A DNA stretch of 64,000 nucleotides from an uncultured Alphaproteobacteria bacterium (GTDB taxonomy: Bacteria; Pseudomonadota; Alphaproteobacteria; HIMB59; GCA-002718135), in assembly GCA_902595425.1 (NCBI GenBank), contig CACJPV010000003.1:5227-69226 (forward strand), given 5' to 3'. Below the pieces are notes generated by a model that worked only from the letters and a program-made list of their open reading frames with translations, did not search any database and was not told the DNA's origin. The position numbers and the translations under genes are program-made. The first letter of the stretch is position 1. Every line of letters starts with the position of its first letter. Below, piece by piece: positions 3,979 to 62,266 of the stretch.

Positions 3979-5610
3979 TTAAATCTCCTTTGCGTTTTTC
4001 CTTAGTTCAAATTTTTGTATCTTGCCTGTAGATGTTTTCGGTAATTCACCAAAGATTACATTTTTTGGCCTCTTAAATCCAGCCATATTTTCTTTACAAA
4101 ACTTAATAATTTCCTCTTCTGTAGAATTTTGTCCAGGCGCTAGTTCTACAAAGGCGCATGGTGTTTCACCCCATTTTTCATCTGGCTTGGCTACAACTGC
4201 AACTAATGAGACTGCTGGGTGCTTTGCTATTACATTTTCTACTTCTACTGATGAGATATTTTCCCCACCAGAAATTATAATATCTTTAGATCGATCTTTT
4301 ATTTGAATATATCCATCAGGGTAAACAACTGCTAAATCACCAGAATGAAACCAACCATTTCTCATTGAAGTTTCAGTTGCCTCTTTGTTTTTATAATATC
4401 CTTTCATTACAACATTTCCACGCATTAAAATTTCACCCATAGTTTTTCCATCTCTTGGAACAGGAATATATGTCTCGGGATCAACAACTATAGCTTCTTC
4501 AAGATTTGGATAGCGCACGCCTTGTCTTGCATTTAAATCTGCTTTTTCACTATTAGATAAATTATTCCATTCTTCATTCCATGCACATTGTAATACATGC
4601 CCATATGTTTCGGTTAGTCCATAAACATGCATTACTTCAAATCCTAAGTTATCCATTTTTTCTAAAATTGCACTTGTTGGTGGCGCTCCTGCTGTTAACA
4701 CATAAATTTTATGTTTAATTTCTTTTTTGTCTTTATCTTCAGCGTTTGCAATTAAATTCAATACAATTGGTGCTCCACCAAAATGTGTTACTTTATGTTT
4801 ATCAATTAAATTATAAATATCTTTAGCAACAATATATCTACAACACACCACTTTGGCATGAACTAATGCAGCTGTCCATGGATACCCCCATCCATTACAA
4901 TGAAACATGGGTACTGTTGCAAGAAAAGTTAGTTTGTTTGTCATGTTCCAGGCTGTGACACTACCTGTTGACATAAGATATGAACCCCTGTGATGATAAA
5001 CAACTCCTTTAGGTTTTCCTGTTGTGCCTGAAGTATAACTAAGTGATATTGCTTGCCATTCATCTTCTGGAAAGGACCAATTAAAATTATCCTCGCCTGT
5101 ATTTAAAAATTCTTCGTAAGTCCAATCACCAATTTTTTCTCCTTCACCTTCTTTAAAAATTGCCTGATCATCATGAATATCAATAATGGGGATTTTTTTT
5201 CCATAAATGCTCAAGGCTTTTTTGATAGTTGGTGAAAATTGTGTATCAGTGATTAATAATTTAGCATCACTATGCTCTAAAATGTAAGCAATTGTCTGAG
5301 CGTCCAGACGTGTATTGATTGTATTAACTACACCTCCTGTCATTGGAATTGAATAATGAGCCTCTAAAAGTTCAGGTGTATTTGCGGCAATTATAGAAAC
5401 AGTGCTTCCAAGGCCAATACCTTTTTTTGTTAGAGCACTAGCAAATTTTGTACAACGATTATAAGTTTGTAACCATGTATAACTTCTATTTCCATAAACA
5501 ACTGACTCATAATTAGGATAAATATCTTTAACTCGAGTAATAAAACTTAAAGGAGTTAAAGGTACATAATTTGCTTTATTCTTATTAAGATCTGTTGAGA
5601 ATTGATTCAT
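3979..5610 (-). CDS. dmdB: Acyl-CoA synthetase, probably 3-methylmercaptopropionate-CoA ligase (DmdB-like)
   Basis: YTSGTTGKPKG AMP-binding loop, YGLTE, RSKDIIISGGENISS; ANYVPLTPLSF N-terminus and HHRGSYLM…GSVTAWNM resemble SAR11 DmdB as I recall it. Confidence 0.7.
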   Translation of the reverse strand: MNQFSTDLNKNKANYVPLTPLSFITRVKDIYPNYESVVYGNRSYTWLQTYNRCTKFASALTKKGIGLGSTVSIIAANTPELLEAHYSIPMTGGVVNTINTRLDAQTIAYILEHSDAKLLITDTQFSPTIKKALSIYGKKIPIIDIHDDQAIFKEGEGEKIGDWTYEEFLNTGEDNFNWSFPEDEWQAISLSYTSGTTGKPKGVVYHHRGSYLMSTGSVTAWNMTNKLTFLATVPMFHCNGWGYPWTAALVHAKVVCCRYIVAKDIYNLIDKHKVTHFGGAPIVLNLIANAEDKDKKEIKHKIYVLTAGAPPTSAILEKMDNLGFEVMHVYGLTETYGHVLQCAWNEEWNNLSNSEKADLNARQGVRYPNLEEAIVVDPETYIPVPRDGKTMGEILMRGNVVMKGYYKNKEATETSMRNGWFHSGDLAVVYPDGYIQIKDRSKDIIISGGENISSVEVENVIAKHPAVSLVAVVAKPDEKWGETPCAFVELAPGQNSTEEEIIKFCKENMAGFKRPKNVIFGELPKTSTGKIQKFELRKNAKEI

Positions 5611-21329: not shown

Positions 21330-21911
21330 ATGAAAAATATTGGTCTCCTTGGTGGCTCTTTTGATCCTCCTCATAAAGGGCACCTTTACATATCTTTAGA
21401 GGCAAAAAAAATATTAAAGCTTGATGAAATTTGGTGGCTCGTTACACCACAAAACCCTCTTAAAATTAATCAACCTGCCAGCTACTCAGAACGAGTTAAA
21501 AATTGTAAAATAATAACGAAAAATAAACCAATTAAAATTAAAGAAATAGAAAAAAAAATAAACTCTCAATTTTCTTATCAAACAATCAAATATTTAAATA
21601 ACCATTATAAAAATATCAATTTTTTTTGGTTGATGGGAGCTGATAATTTAATTAATTTTCATCAATGGCAAAACGCTCATAGAATTTTTAATGAAATCCC
21701 TATTGTAGTATTTAGAAGATATGGTTATAATCAACAAGCATTGAAAAGTTACATATCAAATTTGTATAAAAACTTCAGAATCAAAAACAAAAAAATTCAT
21801 ATAGATAATTTCAACCAACTCCCTGCTTGGACTATTATTCAAAATAAAGAAATCAGAATATCCTCTACTGAAATTAGAAAACAAAGAGAATTATTGAGGC
21901 CTAAAGATTAA
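21330..21911 (+). CDS. nadD: Nicotinate-nucleotide adenylyltransferase
   Basis: GGSFDPPHKGH, WLMGADNL, ISSTEIR. Confidence 0.92.
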   Translation: MKNIGLLGGSFDPPHKGHLYISLEAKKILKLDEIWWLVTPQNPLKINQPASYSERVKNCKIITKNKPIKIKEIEKKINSQFSYQTIKYLNNHYKNINFFWLMGADNLINFHQWQNAHRIFNEIPIVVFRRYGYNQQALKSYISNLYKNFRIKNKKIHIDNFNQLPAWTIIQNKEIRISSTEIRKQRELLRPKD

Positions 21912-22263
21912 TACTTCATCAAAATTAACAGATACAATTTATGGCATTCTTGATGATGCAAAAACTGAAGATATAAAAATTATTAATTTAAGAGAAAAAT
22001 CTTCTGTGGCAGACTATTTTATTATTTCTACATGCCGCTCTACAAGACATGCAGAAGCAACAGCTGATGAACTATCAAAAAAATTAAAAAAATTAGGAAT
22101 TAAAATTCCAACACCAGAGGGTAGACCTAAATGTGATTGGGTGATTGTTGATGCTGGTTCTGTTATTGTGCATTTATTTAAAAAGGAAACTCGGGAAATA
22201 TATAATTTAGAACAATTGTGGGAAATTAACTTTGAATCTGAAAAAAATAAACTAGCTAATTAA
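21907..22263 (+). CDS. rsfS: Ribosome silencing factor RsfS (Iojap), probably starting at ATT 21907
   Basis: ILDDAKTEDIKIINL…ADYFII…DWVIVDAGSVIVHLF…RE.YNLEQLW; the conserved N-terminus lies upstream of the ORF-track GTG at 22006. Confidence 0.88.
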   Translation: MNTSSKLTDTIYGILDDAKTEDIKIINLREKSSVADYFIISTCRSTRHAEATADELSKKLKKLGIKIPTPEGRPKCDWVIVDAGSVIVHLFKKETREIYNLEQLWEINFESEKNKLAN

Positions 22264-22275
22264 AAGGTAAAACAG

Positions 22276-23565
22276 ATGAGACTTATTATAAGCAATTTAT
22301 TATTTCTATCCATTCTATTTGGATCTACTACATCTTTTAGCGTTTCTAAAAATAAAGAAACATATGAATACCTTGATCTATTTGGAAAAGTATTTGATAG
22401 AGTTCGTTCTGAGTATGTCGAAGAAGTAACTGATCAAGAATTAATTGAAAAGGCAATAGATGGCATGTTGACTGGTCTTGACCCTCATTCCGGATACATG
22501 AATGAAGAAGTATGGCAAGAAATGCAAATGGATACTCAGGGAAAATTTGGTGGTTTAGGAATTGAAATAACTATGGAAGAAGGTTTCGTGAAAGTTATTT
22601 CACCTATTGAAGATAGCCCGGCATACGAAGCAGGAATTTTAGCAGGAGATTTTATTGTTCAAATTGATGATACGCCTGTCTTTGGTTTAACACTAAATGA
22701 ATCAGTTGAATTAATGCGCGGTGAAAAAGGCAAAGCAGTAAAGTTGACAATTTCAAGGGAAGGTATGGAGCTTTTTGAGGTTACTGTTGTAAGAGACATC
22801 ATAAAAATACAATCTGTTAAACACGACATATACAATAATATTGGGTATCTAAGAATTACCTCTTTTACTGAGCAAACAGAAGAGGGATTGTTAAAATCTA
22901 TAAATACAATTCAAGAAGAATATAAAGATATAAAGGGCTATGTTCTCGATTTGCGATCAAATCCAGGAGGTTTACTTAATCAGGCTGTAAAAGTTACGGA
23001 TATTTTCTTAAAGCGTGGTGAAATAGTCTCAACAAGAGGTCGAGAAACAAAAGATATAAAAAGATACAGAGCAAAAAATAAAGATCTTACTAATGGTAAG
23101 CCAATTGTAGTTATCATAAATGGTGGTTCTGCATCTGCCTCTGAAATAGTTGCAGGAGCACTACAAGATCATAAGCGAGCAATAGTAATAGGCACACAAT
23201 CATTTGGTAAAGGATCAGTTCAAACAATTATACCATTTCAAAGATCTAACTCTGATAATATTTCTGGAATAAGATTAACAACTGCAAGGTATTACACACC
23301 TTCTGGTGAATCAATTCAAGGTAAAGGAATTACTCCTGACATAATTATAGAGCAAGGTGAATTTGAGTCATTTGACTTTAAGAGATATTCTGAGTCTGAT
23401 TTAAAAGACTCATTAGATAAAGAAGAAAATAATTTTAATAATAAAGAAGAAGACAATGTCGAATTAAGTGAGAAAGAAGAGAGATTGGCAAGGGATTATC
23501 AGCTTAGAAGAGCATTAGACTTAATTCGAGGTTTAAATATATTCGAAGAGTCAATTGAAGAGTAA
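22276..23565 (+). CDS. ctpA: Carboxy-terminal processing protease (S41)
   Basis: Signal peptide, LDPHS, PDZ GGLGIE, LDLRSNPGG, SASASEIVAGAL, SFGKGSVQ, TTARYYTPSG. Confidence 0.93.
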   Translation: MRLIISNLLFLSILFGSTTSFSVSKNKETYEYLDLFGKVFDRVRSEYVEEVTDQELIEKAIDGMLTGLDPHSGYMNEEVWQEMQMDTQGKFGGLGIEITMEEGFVKVISPIEDSPAYEAGILAGDFIVQIDDTPVFGLTLNESVELMRGEKGKAVKLTISREGMELFEVTVVRDIIKIQSVKHDIYNNIGYLRITSFTEQTEEGLLKSINTIQEEYKDIKGYVLDLRSNPGGLLNQAVKVTDIFLKRGEIVSTRGRETKDIKRYRAKNKDLTNGKPIVVIINGGSASASEIVAGALQDHKRAIVIGTQSFGKGSVQTIIPFQRSNSDNISGIRLTTARYYTPSGESIQGKGITPDIIIEQGEFESFDFKRYSESDLKDSLDKEENNFNNKEEDNVELSEKEERLARDYQLRRALDLIRGLNIFEESIEE

Positions 23566-50802: not shown

Positions 50803-51131
50803 GCTTTTATCAGTGAGAAGATAGAGAAAGATACTATAATCATAAGAATGTATGTTAATGAGCTTATAAATAATTTAGTTATGTATTTTAATTTTTGTGA
50901 TGTGACATAATCATCTGCAATTGTTTCACAGCCTAATTTTGCATGATAAAGCATTGAAATTATTAAAATAAAGTAAAGTAAAGAATTCAATTTTGAGAAG
51001 AAAAATGCTTTGGTCTCTTCATAATTAAAAGATGCTAAAAGTAAGCAATTATAAACAAACCAAAAAGTAAGTGGAATTAAAATCAATGCAGTTATTCGTT
51101 GCATAATCCATTTTGTTGAATAGTTTTTCAT
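50799..51131 (-). CDS. sdhD: Succinate dehydrogenase hydrophobic anchor subunit (start ATG 51131)
   Basis: [13 protein letters not shown]…DDY; position between sdhC and sdhA. Confidence 0.9.
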
Positions 51132-51499
51132 AATAAAGTCCAAACAAAAATTGAAGATAATATTGATAAAAAGACTACGGCATAGCCACTTTTATAAACA
51201 ATACTTAGCTCCATCATTTTTCCATAACTCCAGAATAAATAACGGATACCATTAAAAAGATGATAAAAAATGGCTAATGTCCAAAGAAATAAGAGTATTT
51301 TAAAAGCAAAATATGAACTTATAGTTTTAAAAATTAAAAAATAGTTCTCTCCCAGTGCTATTAGGGCAATCCATATCGTTAATAACACCGCCCCTAAACT
51401 TAGAGCTATTCCAGTAAATCTATGAAAAATAGAGAAAACTGCTGTTAAAACATACTTATGAATAGACAAATGTGGGGATAAAGGTCGTTTGAATTCCAT
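51128..51499 (-). CDS. sdhC: Succinate dehydrogenase cytochrome b556 subunit (start ATG 51499)
   Basis: RPLSPHL, SIFHRFTG, YHLFNGIR. Confidence 0.92.
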   Translation of the reverse strand: MEFKRPLSPHLSIHKYVLTAVFSIFHRFTGIALSLGAVLLTIWIALIALGENYFLIFKTISSYFAFKILLFLWTLAIFYHLFNGIRYLFWSYGKMMELSIVYKSGYAVVFLSILSSIFVWTLL

Positions 51500-51602
51500 T
51501 TTTAAATAAAAAATAAGTACTTTATTTGTTCTAACTATATTTTTTTTGCAGAATTTCAAAAAAAATTAATGATTTCTTATATAGAAACTAAAATTTACAA
51601 AA

Positions 51603-51623
51603 TGTGTATAAGCCTGTGGATAG
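51603..51623 (-). promoter_or_regulatory. Tandem DnaA-box-like pair
   Basis: Minus strand reads CTATCCACA-ggc-TTATACACA; one perfect TTATNCACA box and one with a single mismatch. Confidence 0.5.
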
Positions 51624-51725
51624 AATAAATTTCAATAATATTTATTAAAGGGAAAAAAGGAAAAAAAATCAATAAAAAAAGCCGAAAATGTTGAAATCAG
51701 TAACTTTTAGATATAGTCCTAATTT

Positions 51726-51869
51726 AGTCGGATTGTAACTCAATTTCTTTGCTTCGGAGGAACGCCTAGAAATTTTTCATCTTACCCGCCGTTTGATGAT
51801 TTAAGAGTTTTCTTTTACTAGAGAAGTGTCTGCCAAGGTACAAACTAGAAGAGAGAGTCCGACTTTTTT
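51726..51869 (+). ncRNA. Structured rod-shaped ncRNA candidate (6S-like / IMES-like)
   Basis: Ends pair (AGTCGGATT 51726-34 with AGTCCGACT 51856-64), 40% GC by hand count versus AT-rich flanks, T-run after the 3' end, TATAGT -10-like hexamer at 51712-17, no ORF. Confidence 0.65.
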
Positions 51870-52857
51870 ATTTTAAATTATCTTCAAAAAAATTTTTCAT
51901 TTTTTCTGCATATAAATCTGGATACTTAAACATTCCATCCACATGATATGAATTTTCAGCTAACCAAAACTCAGATTTAATATTATTTTCCTCAGCATAT
52001 TTCTTAAAATATTCGTAGTGCCTGATCAACATCCTTTGATCTTTATCGCCATGAGTAAAAAAATAATTTTGATCATTGTTTAATTTCTTAGCTGGATTTA
52101 AATTAATAGGGTCAACACCAGATAATAATTTTCCAAAGAAACTTACTGCAGGTCCAAACTCAATGGACAAACCATAACGGGCAATTTCATCTTGAAGAAC
52201 CATATTAAACTCTGCCAGCGAACTATCTGCCCATATAGCTTTAATATCTCTTTCTTTATTAGCTGCAAAAATTACTGGTACTGCGCCTAAGGAAATACCG
52301 TGAAGACCAATGCTATTACTTTCAAAACCAATTTTTTTTAGAAAATCATAAGCTCCTAAAACATCATTATAAGATTTTAAACCTAGATCTTCATAATCAC
52401 TTACAATATCACTTTGACCATAATTACGTAAATCAATAGTTAAAGCATTAATACGTTCTTGAATTAATAAACTAGCAATTAAGTTTGACTCAGGTTTACA
52501 TTTACCATTTGGATAAATCCCATGAACTACTACTACAATTGGACGTTCTGGATAATAATTAAATAGCCACCCATTAAGCTGAATATCTTTTTCTCTAGAG
52601 GGAAAATACACATTTTGCCATTTCTCAAGATGATATTCACTTGAAGGAAAATTATCTCTCAATCTACTTCTTGATAAATTTGAATATTCATGGGCATCAA
52701 TTTTAGTGTTCCATGAATTAGGTTTTGAATTTTCATGCCAACCACATGTGTGATCTATTTTTAGAATGCTATATGCTACATAGAATCCCGCAACACCATA
52801 AATAAGAAAACCTAAAAACATTATAGATGACAATATAATTAATAATTTTTTTTTCAT
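51868..52857 (-). CDS. Membrane-anchored alpha/beta hydrolase
   Basis: N-terminal TM helix, VVHG, IDLRNYGQS, GISLG nucleophile, HGDKD, H at YHVD. Confidence 0.8.
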   Translation of the reverse strand: MKKKLLIILSSIMFLGFLIYGVAGFYVAYSILKIDHTCGWHENSKPNSWNTKIDAHEYSNLSRSRLRDNFPSSEYHLEKWQNVYFPSREKDIQLNGWLFNYYPERPIVVVVHGIYPNGKCKPESNLIASLLIQERINALTIDLRNYGQSDIVSDYEDLGLKSYNDVLGAYDFLKKIGFESNSIGLHGISLGAVPVIFAANKERDIKAIWADSSLAEFNMVLQDEIARYGLSIEFGPAVSFFGKLLSGVDPINLNPAKKLNNDQNYFFTHGDKDQRMLIRHYEYFKKYAEENNIKSEFWLAENSYHVDGMFKYPDLYAEKMKNFFEDNLK

Positions 52858-53891
52858 GAAGGCTGAATGATGGTCATTTCATATAATCTACTTGCAGTTC
52901 TATTAAACTCTTTAGATAAATTTGCAATTTGACATAAGGTAGAAATTGGACTTTCAGCAAGGATGACAACAGAACACTTATTATCATAAAGCATATCAAT
53001 TAAACTTATAAATCTTCTACACTGATCAGAATAATCATTTGTCATTTTTGGAACATTTTCAATAAAAATAAGATTAAACTCTTTTGCAATATTGGCATAA
53101 TCTTCATGTGCAAGATTAGCATTGCAAATAAAATCAAAGGTGCAATAAGCTACATTAGCGGAACATTTTGTAAAATGTATTTCTCTACTTTTAATTTCTA
53201 CTTTCTTAGTTGTTAAATTATTTGCATCAACCAATCTATCAAAAAGCGAATTAAATTCCTCTTCAGTATCTTTATTTATTGGTGTGAAATAAGTCTTAGA
53301 TTGATTCAATCTAATTCTTCTATAATCTGTTTGACTAGCAACATTGATAACATCGTAACTTTCTTTTATGTGCTCAATAAAAGGTAAAAAATCTGCTCTT
53401 TGCAAACCATTTTTATAAAGATCACTTGGTTGAAAATTAGAAGATGTCATGATAAAAATATTATTTTCTTCAAGTAAATGAAAAATTTTTTTAATTAAAA
53501 GAGCATCGACTATATTAAAAATATGTAATTCATCGATAAAAAGTATTTTAATTTCTTTACAGAAATCCTTTATAAATAGTTCTAATGTGTTATGCTTATT
53601 TTTATTTGAATTAATAGTGTCATGAATTCTGTTCATCAAGTGATTGAAATGAATTTTTTTTCCTTCCTTGCTGTATTGTGAGAATAAACTTAGTAAAAAT
53701 GTCTTGCCTGTACCTACAGAGCCATAAACATAGATTCCTATTTTTTTCTTTTTAGAAAAAAATAAATTACTTTTGTTATAATAATCCCAAACAGAAGAAA
53801 TTTTATTTAATAAATCAATTTGATTAGTGTCTTTTTTAATAAAGTTATTTAATACAAAACCATTATAGTGATCAAGAACTGAAAAGTTCAT
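52854..53891 (-). CDS. zapE: Cell division ATPase ZapE (AFG1 family)
   Basis: GIYVYGSVGTGKT, FIDELH, TSSNFQPSDLYKNGLQR, DYR, RRFISLIDMLYD, FNRTASRLYEM. Confidence 0.9.
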   Translation of the reverse strand: MNFSVLDHYNGFVLNNFIKKDTNQIDLLNKISSVWDYYNKSNLFFSKKKKIGIYVYGSVGTGKTFLLSLFSQYSKEGKKIHFNHLMNRIHDTINSNKNKHNTLELFIKDFCKEIKILFIDELHIFNIVDALLIKKIFHLLEENNIFIMTSSNFQPSDLYKNGLQRADFLPFIEHIKESYDVINVASQTDYRRIRLNQSKTYFTPINKDTEEEFNSLFDRLVDANNLTTKKVEIKSREIHFTKCSANVAYCTFDFICNANLAHEDYANIAKEFNLIFIENVPKMTNDYSDQCRRFISLIDMLYDNKCSVVILAESPISTLCQIANLSKEFNRTASRLYEMTIIQPS

Positions 53892-55425: not shown

Positions 55426-56102
55426 TATCGGTTAATAACTTTCTTAACTTTTTTTAATAATTTAAGCATTTTATTTTCATTTATTCTACCAGTATTTACA
55501 TTTCGAGGACTAGGATGATATGAGCCAATTAATATTTTTTTATCAGGTAGAAGATACTCTATTCCATGCTGAAAAATGAAATCTTTTCTTTTAATATCAT
55601 AATCTTGCATATAAAAATTCAAACAAGCATCAAATGCAATTTTGCCCAGAGCTACTATTGTATTTATTTTTGATAAATAACTTATTTCTTCCTTGAGAAA
55701 TTTAAAACATGTTTTAAGCTCATCAGGCTTTGGCTTATCTTCAGGTGGAACACATTTTAATGCAGTTGTTAAATAGAGATTTTTAAGTTGTAACCCATCA
55801 TCTCTTGAAATAGAAATACCCTGATTAGCAAAACCTGACTTATAAAGACACTTAAAAAGAAAATCTGCAGATTTATCTCCGGTGAATACCCTTCCAGTTC
55901 TATTCCCTCCGTGAGCTGCTGGAGCAAGACCTATCATGAGTAACTGTGCATCAGTATCTCCATAACCAGTAATTGGTTTTCCCCAATAATTATGATCAAT
56001 ATACTGACGTCTTTTTTCAGTAGCAACTTTTTCTCTAAAATTTACAAGTCTATCACAATTTCTGCACTTAGTTATTTTGTTGTTTAATTTAATTAATGTC
56101 AT
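55425..56102 (-). CDS. Uracil-DNA glycosylase, family 5 (UdgB-type, Fe-S)
   Basis: CRNC.RL, GLAPAAHGGNRTGRVFTGD, KCVPP.DKP, SYHPSPRN. Confidence 0.9.
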   Translation of the reverse strand: MTLIKLNNKITKCRNCDRLVNFREKVATEKRRQYIDHNYWGKPITGYGDTDAQLLMIGLAPAAHGGNRTGRVFTGDKSADFLFKCLYKSGFANQGISISRDDGLQLKNLYLTTALKCVPPEDKPKPDELKTCFKFLKEEISYLSKINTIVALGKIAFDACLNFYMQDYDIKRKDFIFQHGIEYLLPDKKILIGSYHPSPRNVNTGRINENKMLKLLKKVKKVINR

Positions 56103-62191: not shown

Positions 62192-62266
62192 GGTCTCGTG
62201 GTGAAATGGATATCACACGTGTCTTCGGAACATGGATTTGGGGTTCGAGTCCCTACGAGACCACCA
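62192..62266 (+). tRNA. tRNA-Arg, anticodon UCG
   Basis: Acceptor GGTCTCG/CGAGACC + ACCA, D stem GTGA/TCAC with A20, anticodon stem CGTGT/ACATG with loop CT-TCG-GA, T loop TTCGAGT. Confidence 0.95.

Follow-up and report, generated by a model that had tools for sequence, protein, structure and literature searches.

A separately encoded branched small RNA beside sdhC in the HIMB59 order, with arms predicted to pair with marR, ftsZ and rsmH messages

Introduction

Several small RNAs that act on the bacterial cell cycle have been described. EcpR1 of Sinorhizobium meliloti is an alphaproteobacterial, trans-acting RNA of two stem-loops that is encoded downstream of divK-pleD in Rhizobiales, uses a GC-rich loop as its seed, targets the cell-cycle genes dnaA and gcrA, and is reported to be Hfq-independent (PMC4414408); a pairing between EcpR1 and ftsZ was also predicted in Sinorhizobium and reported not to regulate (PMC4414408). 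StsR of Rhodobacter sphaeroides binds the 5' UTR before mraZ (UpsM), where the dcw-cluster message is structured, and changes the processing of that message (PMC8266604), while the prophage-encoded and patchily distributed DicF of Escherichia coli regulates ftsZ (PMC5069750). CcnA of Caulobacter crescentus, encoded at the replication origin, acts at the ribosome-binding sites of ctrA and gcrA, which regulate the cell cycle, and has been proposed to free one such site and sequester another (PMC8959179). Lastly, the sRNA-1 and PBC-3 pair of SAR11 bacteria includes an orphan small RNA of two hairpins. The G-rich loop of this RNA, GAGGGAG, complements, as judged by sequence comparison, a conserved element in an mRNA, and the partner lies next to cytochrome c biogenesis genes (PMC6429828).

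Little regulation is generally ascribed to streamlined marine alphaproteobacteria, which are also regarded as lacking Hfq. The HIMB59/AEGEAN-169 order is described as consisting of abundant, streamlined marine bacteria (PMC10308909). Here we analyse a structured RNA gene of this order, located in a stretch of 64,000 nucleotides (the window) of one genome (G000; its other contigs are given as C1, C4 and so on, and other genomes and loci by G and L numbers). The RNA would work like EcpR1, StsR, DicF and CcnA, and is a member of none of these families.

Results

A structured RNA gene divergent from sdhC

The locus comprises the following genes:

51726..51864, + strand: small RNA gene of 139 nt with a branched fold of five helices (P1-P5), indicated by conservation, pair covariation and RNA-library contigs
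51128..51499, − strand: sdhC (PF01127), head of the divergent sdhCDAB-mdh-sucCDA string
51868..52857, − strand: alpha/beta hydrolase gene, convergent with the RNA and not a fixed neighbour across the order

A preliminary description of this DNA had proposed a stand-alone structured RNA on the + strand, divergent from sdhC and with its own promoter, and our analysis bears this out. The 139 nt form the G+C island described there (56 G+C, or 40%, where the spacer upstream has 20% and the window as a whole 32%), and the spacer that holds them (51500-51867) is, by our own ORF calls, narrowly the longest in the window (368 vs 364 nt). The + strand has a folding z-score of −2.39, with 3 of 200 shuffled sequences folding equally well. 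The U-run noted after the 3' end is present at 51864-51869; together with the 3' strand of P1 (51856..51869) it shares bases with the hydrolase stop codon, which the RNA abuts, and 226 nt separate the RNA from the sdhC start. sdhC adjoined the RNA in every locus inspected (22 + 10 loci). Two genes from the RNA in most loci of its own family lies a ZapE-like AFG1-family ATPase gene (window 52854-53891); ZapE is an ATPase associated with division. Elsewhere in the window, the 364-nt spacer at 21911-22275 is near an Rfam match to Rp_sR47 (22951-23255, − strand, 84.9 bits) whose aligned sequence resembles the antisense of a coding gene, and a tRNA gene lies at 62192-62263 (+ strand, Rfam 57.9 bits).

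The preliminary description had suggested a comparison with Rfam covariance models. Neither the 6S model (RF00013) nor any other family of Rfam 15, which we take to include the IMES and SAR11 motifs, matched the RNA at its gathering score, and at E-values up to 10 the region 51500-51950 returned only five chance-level matches. RNase P, SRP and tmRNA were each found elsewhere in the source genome, which excludes these identities, and a weak group I intron match (15.5 bits vs a threshold of 50) was rejected as arising from short S-element-like words with no core fold. No description of this RNA was found in a literature search of mainly openly accessible texts, which leaves room for an earlier unnamed listing.

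The RNA adopts a closed, branched fold

The fold that best accounts for the homologous sequences consists of a closing stem and three hairpin arms, two of which are enclosed by a further helix:

51726..51734, + strand: 5' strand of P1, which closes the whole RNA and pairs with 51856-51864; 6 of 9 pairs changed on both sides
51738..51741, + strand: 5' strand of P2 (ACUC), which pairs with GAGU at 51805-51808 and encloses P3 and P4; 125/125 cells paired, one-sided changes only
51744..51772, + strand: P3 hairpin; GGAGGAACGCC (51756-51766) complements a hairpin-loop site in rsmH (G000:C4:55832-55842)
51777..51799, + strand: P4 hairpin; CCGCCGUUU (51786-51794) complements the ftsZ ribosome-binding site (G000:C4:70547-70555)
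51818..51848, + strand: P5 hairpin; AGAGAAGUGUCUGCCA (51820-51835) complements positions +2 to +17 of a gene of the MarR family (G000:C9:23765-23780) perfectly over 16 nt
51856..51869, + strand: 3' strand of P1 and U-run, with adapter-joined contig ends nearby

Across 35 homologues, 96.7% of cells in the branched fold are paired (125/125 for P2, 335/343 for P3, 233/243 for P4 and 348/350 for P5), and 10 of 40 pairs have changes on both sides; this covariation exceeds that of all 500 shuffles and all slid controls, though its extent is inflated by related sequences. The inner stem of P5 is invariant among homologues. One-sided changes are mostly from U-A to U-G or from G-C to G-U, which are wobble-type on the + strand and would break the corresponding pairs on the − strand. 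The loops of the arms are unpaired in the predicted fold.

Of the helices read by eye in the preliminary description, the 9-bp closing stem and the CAUC/GAUG helix both recur in this fold, but the 6S-like rod with a central bubble does not. Helices specific to the rod have a base-pair probability of 0.00, and there is no central bubble. The rod fold reaches −16.8 kcal/mol (−30.0 when completed in the best way) compared with −38.7 for the branched fold, and is thus 9 to 22 kcal/mol worse. Paired cells in the four rod-only helices amount to only 58/87, 114/174, 116/140 and 161/225 (66 to 83%) in the same 35 homologues.

Promoter, DnaA-box-like words and expression

Two features lie upstream of the RNA:

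51691..51719, + strand: predicted sigma70-type promoter TTGAAA-17-TAGTCC, with a predicted start at 51726
51603..51623, + strand: two tandem DnaA-box-like 9-mers; at least one box is present in 65 of 69 upstream regions, compared with 2.8% of shuffles

The −10-like TATAGT previously placed 8 nt upstream of the RNA is indeed present (51712-51717), but the register that is conserved is TAGTCC (51714-51719), which sits 17 nt after TTGAAA. The spacing TTGnnn-17-TA was found in 65 of 69 distinct upstream regions and in 4.6% of shuffles; a consensus scanner detected neither a promoter nor a terminator-like site at the RNA. The 9-mers, which resemble the DnaA-box consensus, form one of only two such tandem pairs in the source genome. 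We considered whether the spacer might be a replication origin and rejected this possibility: skew along contig C3 has no clear turn, the complete genome G037 has its sole tandem box pair at the end of the contig, with about 246 kb between it and sdhC, and the second tandem pair of G000 sits on a contig with mnmE/mnmG-like genes.

Ten sequencing runs contained part of the stretch, all at a small share, and eight of these were compared. Contigs spanning 51714-51866 were present in four metatranscriptomes, three of which held almost nothing else of the region while one also held the hydrolase at lower depth. All 7 RNA or possible-RNA runs had contigs covering the element, at high depth in some RNA libraries. 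In 4 of the 8 runs, contigs ended in presumed Illumina adapter. The joint lies at 51863 in X3 and falls 1-3 nt short of the P1 end in X1, X2 and X9, whereas the contig of the probable-DNA run X8 continues through from 51675 to 51933. The 5' adapter joints fall at 51739-51746, away from the predicted start at 51726, and low-depth contigs of two of the eight runs (X4 and X6) extend about 100 nt upstream past the 5' end. Because contigs cannot show strand, start or level, these data are only a hint of a discrete transcript. The lack of read cover on the flanks was left out of the evidence, as the flanks are more diverged and the runs had been chosen for containing the stretch.

Distribution and diverged versions across the order

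BLAST recovered the RNA in 21 of 36 genomes of the same genus and in none of 24 genomes of the sister family, the other family of the order. A covariance model of the RNA (R1) detected it in 60 of 79 own-family genomes, most of them incomplete, spanning six genera, with sdhC as its neighbour. R1 gave no match in 71 sister-family genomes or in 150 genomes of other alphaproteobacteria (one per family), and the latter result is weak evidence on wider distribution because R1 also misses the sister-family RNA, which can be recognised by eye. Matches of a 16-nt pattern to Brevundimonas and other bacteria outside the family scored at most 14.8 bits with R1 among those listed and were taken as chance; two Brevundimonas genomes (L025, L057) have 19 of 22 nt in common with the P5 arm, at 14.8 bits. 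A loose pattern matched at least 121 stretches in viruses, and none of the 80 retrieved scored with R1.

Versions missed by R1 were recognised by eye in the same sdhC spacer. The RNA of G072 and G132 keeps P1, P3 and P4 and lacks P5; these two loci (L266:4252-4399 and L265, respectively) share a 5' hairpin with a DnaA-box-like word, and that of G132 also has a different, G+C-rich 3' hairpin. One genus carries a hairpin of ~27 nt inserted between P1 and P2 (L230 / L023). The sister-family RNA, found in 50 of 61 genomes, is ~95 nt long, is closed by a stem and has a loop, CACCCCGCA, that does not vary; 4 of its 17 predicted pairs covary, and its position, closing stem and loop suggest that it is homologous to the own-family RNA. 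Five divergent homologous loci had no match in Rfam. Length and arms vary across the order, from about 95 to over 200 nt.

The P5 arm complements the start of a MarR-family gene

When the source genome was searched for sequence complementary to the RNA's three invariant stretches, three sites emerged. The strongest is that of P5, whose target belongs to the MarR family by PF01047 and is named likewise in the source annotation. Its duplex ranks first among 1455 start regions (−30.6 vs −20.6 kcal/mol for the next), and none of 2000 shuffled P5 arms reached a 16-nt match in start regions; when the whole 139 nt were shuffled, 16 nt were reached by 5 of 500 in start regions and by 65 of 500 anywhere in sense sequence. 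The net cofold energy is −15.5, a value that none of 60 shuffles equalled.

This site is kept at the nucleotide level in 46 of 48 loci, with protein identity falling to 42%. Between genera, nucleotide conservation of marR ends at codon 7, and 28/28 same-genus loci use one and the same codon at each of the fourfold positions 2, 4 and 5, compared with a single codon at 4 of 27 invariant residues further on. At least 16 bp are kept in 31 of 32 genomes with both P5 and marR, the exception being G079 with 12 bp. Changes within the pairing are from GAC to GAT in marR (5 loci) and from A to G in the RNA, both of which yield G-U pairs. The two marR loci without the site belong to G072 and G132, in which the RNA has no P5. 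The marR site is present in G128, where the sdh region is unassembled. The sister family, which also lacks P5, had no match to this marR gene (0/12) and no PF01047 hit over the cut-off (0/3). Long antisense arms were also sought for the sister-family RNA, and nothing above 12 AT-rich nt was found in the 1391 start regions of G037. An additional 9-bp pairing of UACAAACUA with the marR leader, present in G000, was discounted, as this part of P5 varies among homologues.

Immediately before its ATG, marR has tandem TTTGTATACAAA repeats and no Shine-Dalgarno sequence, and its predicted leader is very short. These repeats (L144:4735-4764; G000:C9:23734-23763) overlap the −10 and start in all genera, G072 and G132 included, and are likely the autoregulatory operator of marR. 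Another perfect TTTGTATACAAA copy occurs at C4:80030, before a further gene. Operator-like TTGTATACAA words with at most one mismatch were found in 18 non-coding places, none of them in the promoter of the RNA, and we therefore do not claim a MarR feedback loop.

The P4 arm and the ftsZ ribosome-binding site change together

ACGGCGGAG lies upstream of ftsZ in 23 of 23 own-family loci (one further locus without the gene start was excluded). The sister family instead has TTTGCGGGGA at this site in 6 of 6 loci, and the RNA loop at the same place reads CCCCGCA. Duplexes formed across families weaken from −16.8/−15.1 to about −10.7/−9 kcal/mol, a loss of ~6. Each seed complement is also selective: among all start regions, that of ftsZ is the only one to contain CGGCGG in G000 (1 of 1455) and TGCGGGG in G037 (1 of 1391). 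Within single genomes the pairing is unremarkable, ranking 5 of 1455 (G000) and 8 of 1391 (G037) by duplex energy, with its 9-nt match equalled by 1241 of 2000 shuffles and a net cofold of only −2.4, so that the case rests on the matched change between families. Several genera have an uninterrupted duplex of only 6 bp. The ftsZ site and the Shine-Dalgarno sequence overlap. Separately, ftsZ has a conserved, family-wide promoter-like block of its own (TTGACG ... AATCGTTA; L145:~4505-4535), with an inverted repeat ACGATT/AATCGT across the family.

The P3 arm and a codon-frozen element in rsmH

The 11-nt site of P3 lies in rsmH about 145 nt before ftsL. Its codons TGG CGT TCC TCC CGC are identical in 23 of 23 own-family loci (two partial loci short of the site were left out), despite a GC3 of 17% for the gene, and the block is absent in 4 of 4 sister-family loci, where the RNA has no P3. 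From residue 244 onward, a codon alignment of 21 rsmH sequences has 14 of 32 invariant residues encoded by one codon only, compared with 1 of 60 before. The block has its own fold, with 9 of 35 pairs covarying, whose hairpin loop UUCCUCC complements GGAGGAA, and the P3 variants of G062, G072, G132 and L022 are still able to pair with it. Taken alone, the 11-nt match was reached by 231 of 2000 shuffles, and its net cofold of −3.7 was equalled by 5 of 60 in a nested model that excludes kissing. Since both the ftsZ site and P3 are Shine-Dalgarno overlapping or -like, part of their conservation has other causes.

The codon-frozen, covarying structure occupies the 3' third of rsmH (G000:C4:~55770-55983; L142:3090-3325) in 23 of 23 family loci. 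It is far larger than the P3 site, with a long-range stem that closes beside the ftsL start, and appears to be an undescribed element in its own right.

Taken by lineage, all three arms agree with their sites in the core family, P3 and P4 in G072 and G132, and P4 with its changed seed in the sister family. This concordance is limited to three lineages, whose kin are not independent, and two-sided compensation was not seen for marR and rsmH, which have only wobble-compatible changes.

Discussion

Sequence comparison establishes the gene and its fold, the three complementarities with their conservation, and the way in which arms and sites are gained, lost or altered in concert. We consider it probable that this separately encoded branched small RNA is trans-acting and Hfq-independent, and that each of its three arms would pair with a different mRNA site to control division. 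As is characteristic of trans-acting small RNAs, it has its own promoter, its targets are unlinked (contigs C4 and C9), and its conserved seeds complement conserved mRNA sites. DicF is Hfq-dependent. The features of an Hfq-dependent RNA (a host with Hfq, an intrinsic terminator with U tail) were not found here: Hfq (PF17209) was detected in none of six genomes, five of them at least 90% complete, and the scan gave no terminator-like site. We propose that the RNA would nucleate pairing through its open loops; P5 would pair over the marR start codon and P4 at the ftsZ ribosome-binding site, in each case blocking initiation, and P3 would pair with the hairpin loop in the 3' end of rsmH just before ftsL and alter handling of the division-cluster message. 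We infer the sign of each effect, control by DnaA and the link to the TCA operon.

The preliminary description had read the element as a divergent 6S or other RNA-polymerase-binding RNA. The lineage does seem to lack 6S: RF00013 had no match in 51500-51950 at E-values up to 10, in G000 at E-values up to 1, or in five of five other genomes, giving none in six genomes of the order, in a search that was not fully sensitive, finding 6S in only 5 of 14 control genomes. 6S usually, but not obligatorily, lies between zapA and ygfA. As the preliminary description had observed, these genes do not flank the RNA; a zapA-like ORF overlaps ygfA by 4 nt on contig C1 (G000:C1:209248-210242), with no spacer for 6S. 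A polymerase-binding RNA replacing the missing 6S would fit these absences, the closed ends and the high contig depth in some RNA libraries, but the fold is branched rather than rod-shaped, with no central bubble, its invariant stretches each complement an mRNA site, which explains them, and its length and arms vary across the order, so we regard this role, including that of a polymerase decoy, as very improbable. Still harder to credit is a cis-acting element, whether it served the convergent gene as terminator or 3' UTR, or sdhC as a leader or riboswitch on the − strand. The contact with the hydrolase stop codon and the fixed sdhC neighbour, 226 nt away, are what such an element would predict; against this, the + strand promoter is conserved, the one-sided changes are mostly such as preserve pairing on the + strand only, and the downstream gene changes identity and direction, with no terminator-like site found. 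The preliminary description had itself named a hydrolase terminator as the alternative, and because the downstream gene differs in two genera and the sister family, the RNA is not one.

Two further alternatives accept at least part of the pairing. It could be that only marR is regulated, and that the ftsZ and rsmH matches reflect Shine-Dalgarno-like bias, with the P3 and P4 loops binding protein or ribosome. GGAGG is complementary to the 16S anti-Shine-Dalgarno, and the P3 and P4 matches are insignificant within a single genome. However, the sister-family ftsZ site and loop have changed together, each seed selects only ftsZ among ~1400 starts, P3 is found where the frozen rsmH block is and missing where it is not, and G072 and G132 retain the RNA without P5, which shows that P5 is not its core function; we judge this restricted role improbable. 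Somewhat less probable again is that the pairings are real with a reversed or activating direction, such that the rsmH block or marR 5' end acts as a sponge or decay trigger, or pairing opens a site. Pairing over a start codon or Shine-Dalgarno sequence normally represses, and P5 covers the start codon of a message that has no Shine-Dalgarno and whose predicted leader is very short, and P4 covers the ftsZ Shine-Dalgarno; a change of sign is also easier to accept for one arm than for all three. In favour of reversal, the fold of the rsmH block far exceeds the 11-nt site and could mark a fragment that is cut out and stable, and in E. coli the same operon is reported to yield excised fragments that are stable (PMC6156199); CcnA likewise offers a precedent, in its proposed freeing of one site and sequestering of another (PMC8959179). 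Against the reading that we prefer, a three-armed trans-acting RNA, stands the EcpR1-ftsZ pairing, which was predicted in Sinorhizobium and reported without regulation (PMC4414408).

A broader interpretation, which we hold tentatively and with slightly less than even confidence, is that the RNA is a modular, chaperone-free cell-cycle riboregulator: a closed scaffold with exchangeable arms, transcribed from a DnaA-boxed promoter head-to-head with the TCA operon, that would hit the division cluster at both ends (the structured rsmH element and the ftsZ ribosome-binding site), have acquired arms against other regulators in particular lineages and replace protein regulators in a streamlined genome. 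The RNA shows a small RNA evolving by gain and loss of whole arms. For a gene found across an abundant order, it offers three target predictions at the level of sequence that are directly testable with reporters: in all three, arm and site agree in presence and absence, and one also has intermolecular compensation.

Among the described systems, EcpR1 is likewise alphaproteobacterial and trans-acting, with a GC-rich loop seed, cell-cycle targets and reported independence from Hfq, but it differs in its two stem-loops, its dnaA and gcrA targets and its place downstream of divK-pleD (PMC4414408), and neither the Rfam scan nor R1 connects the two. StsR likewise has its binding site in a structured part of the dcw-cluster message; this site is in the 5' UTR before mraZ (PMC8266604), whereas that of our RNA is inside the rsmH coding sequence, and our RNA has separate arms for ftsZ and the MarR gene. 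DicF shares the regulation of ftsZ by a small RNA, but is prophage-encoded and patchy (PMC5069750), whereas our RNA belongs to the single-copy core genes, has a closed branched fold and occurs in genomes that lack Hfq. Like CcnA, the RNA would be a cell-cycle non-coding RNA acting at the ribosome-binding sites of regulators, though CcnA is located at the origin and targets ctrA and gcrA (PMC8959179), and the locus of our RNA is not origin-like in G037. The small RNA of the SAR11 sRNA-1 and PBC-3 pair is similarly an orphan whose G-rich loop complements a conserved mRNA element by comparison, and it belongs to another lineage, with other flanks, two hairpins and a partner beside cytochrome c biogenesis genes (PMC6429828). 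6S (RF00013), lastly, resembles the RNA in standing alone, in its closed ends and in its size class, and differs from it in fold, sequence and gene neighbourhood alike.
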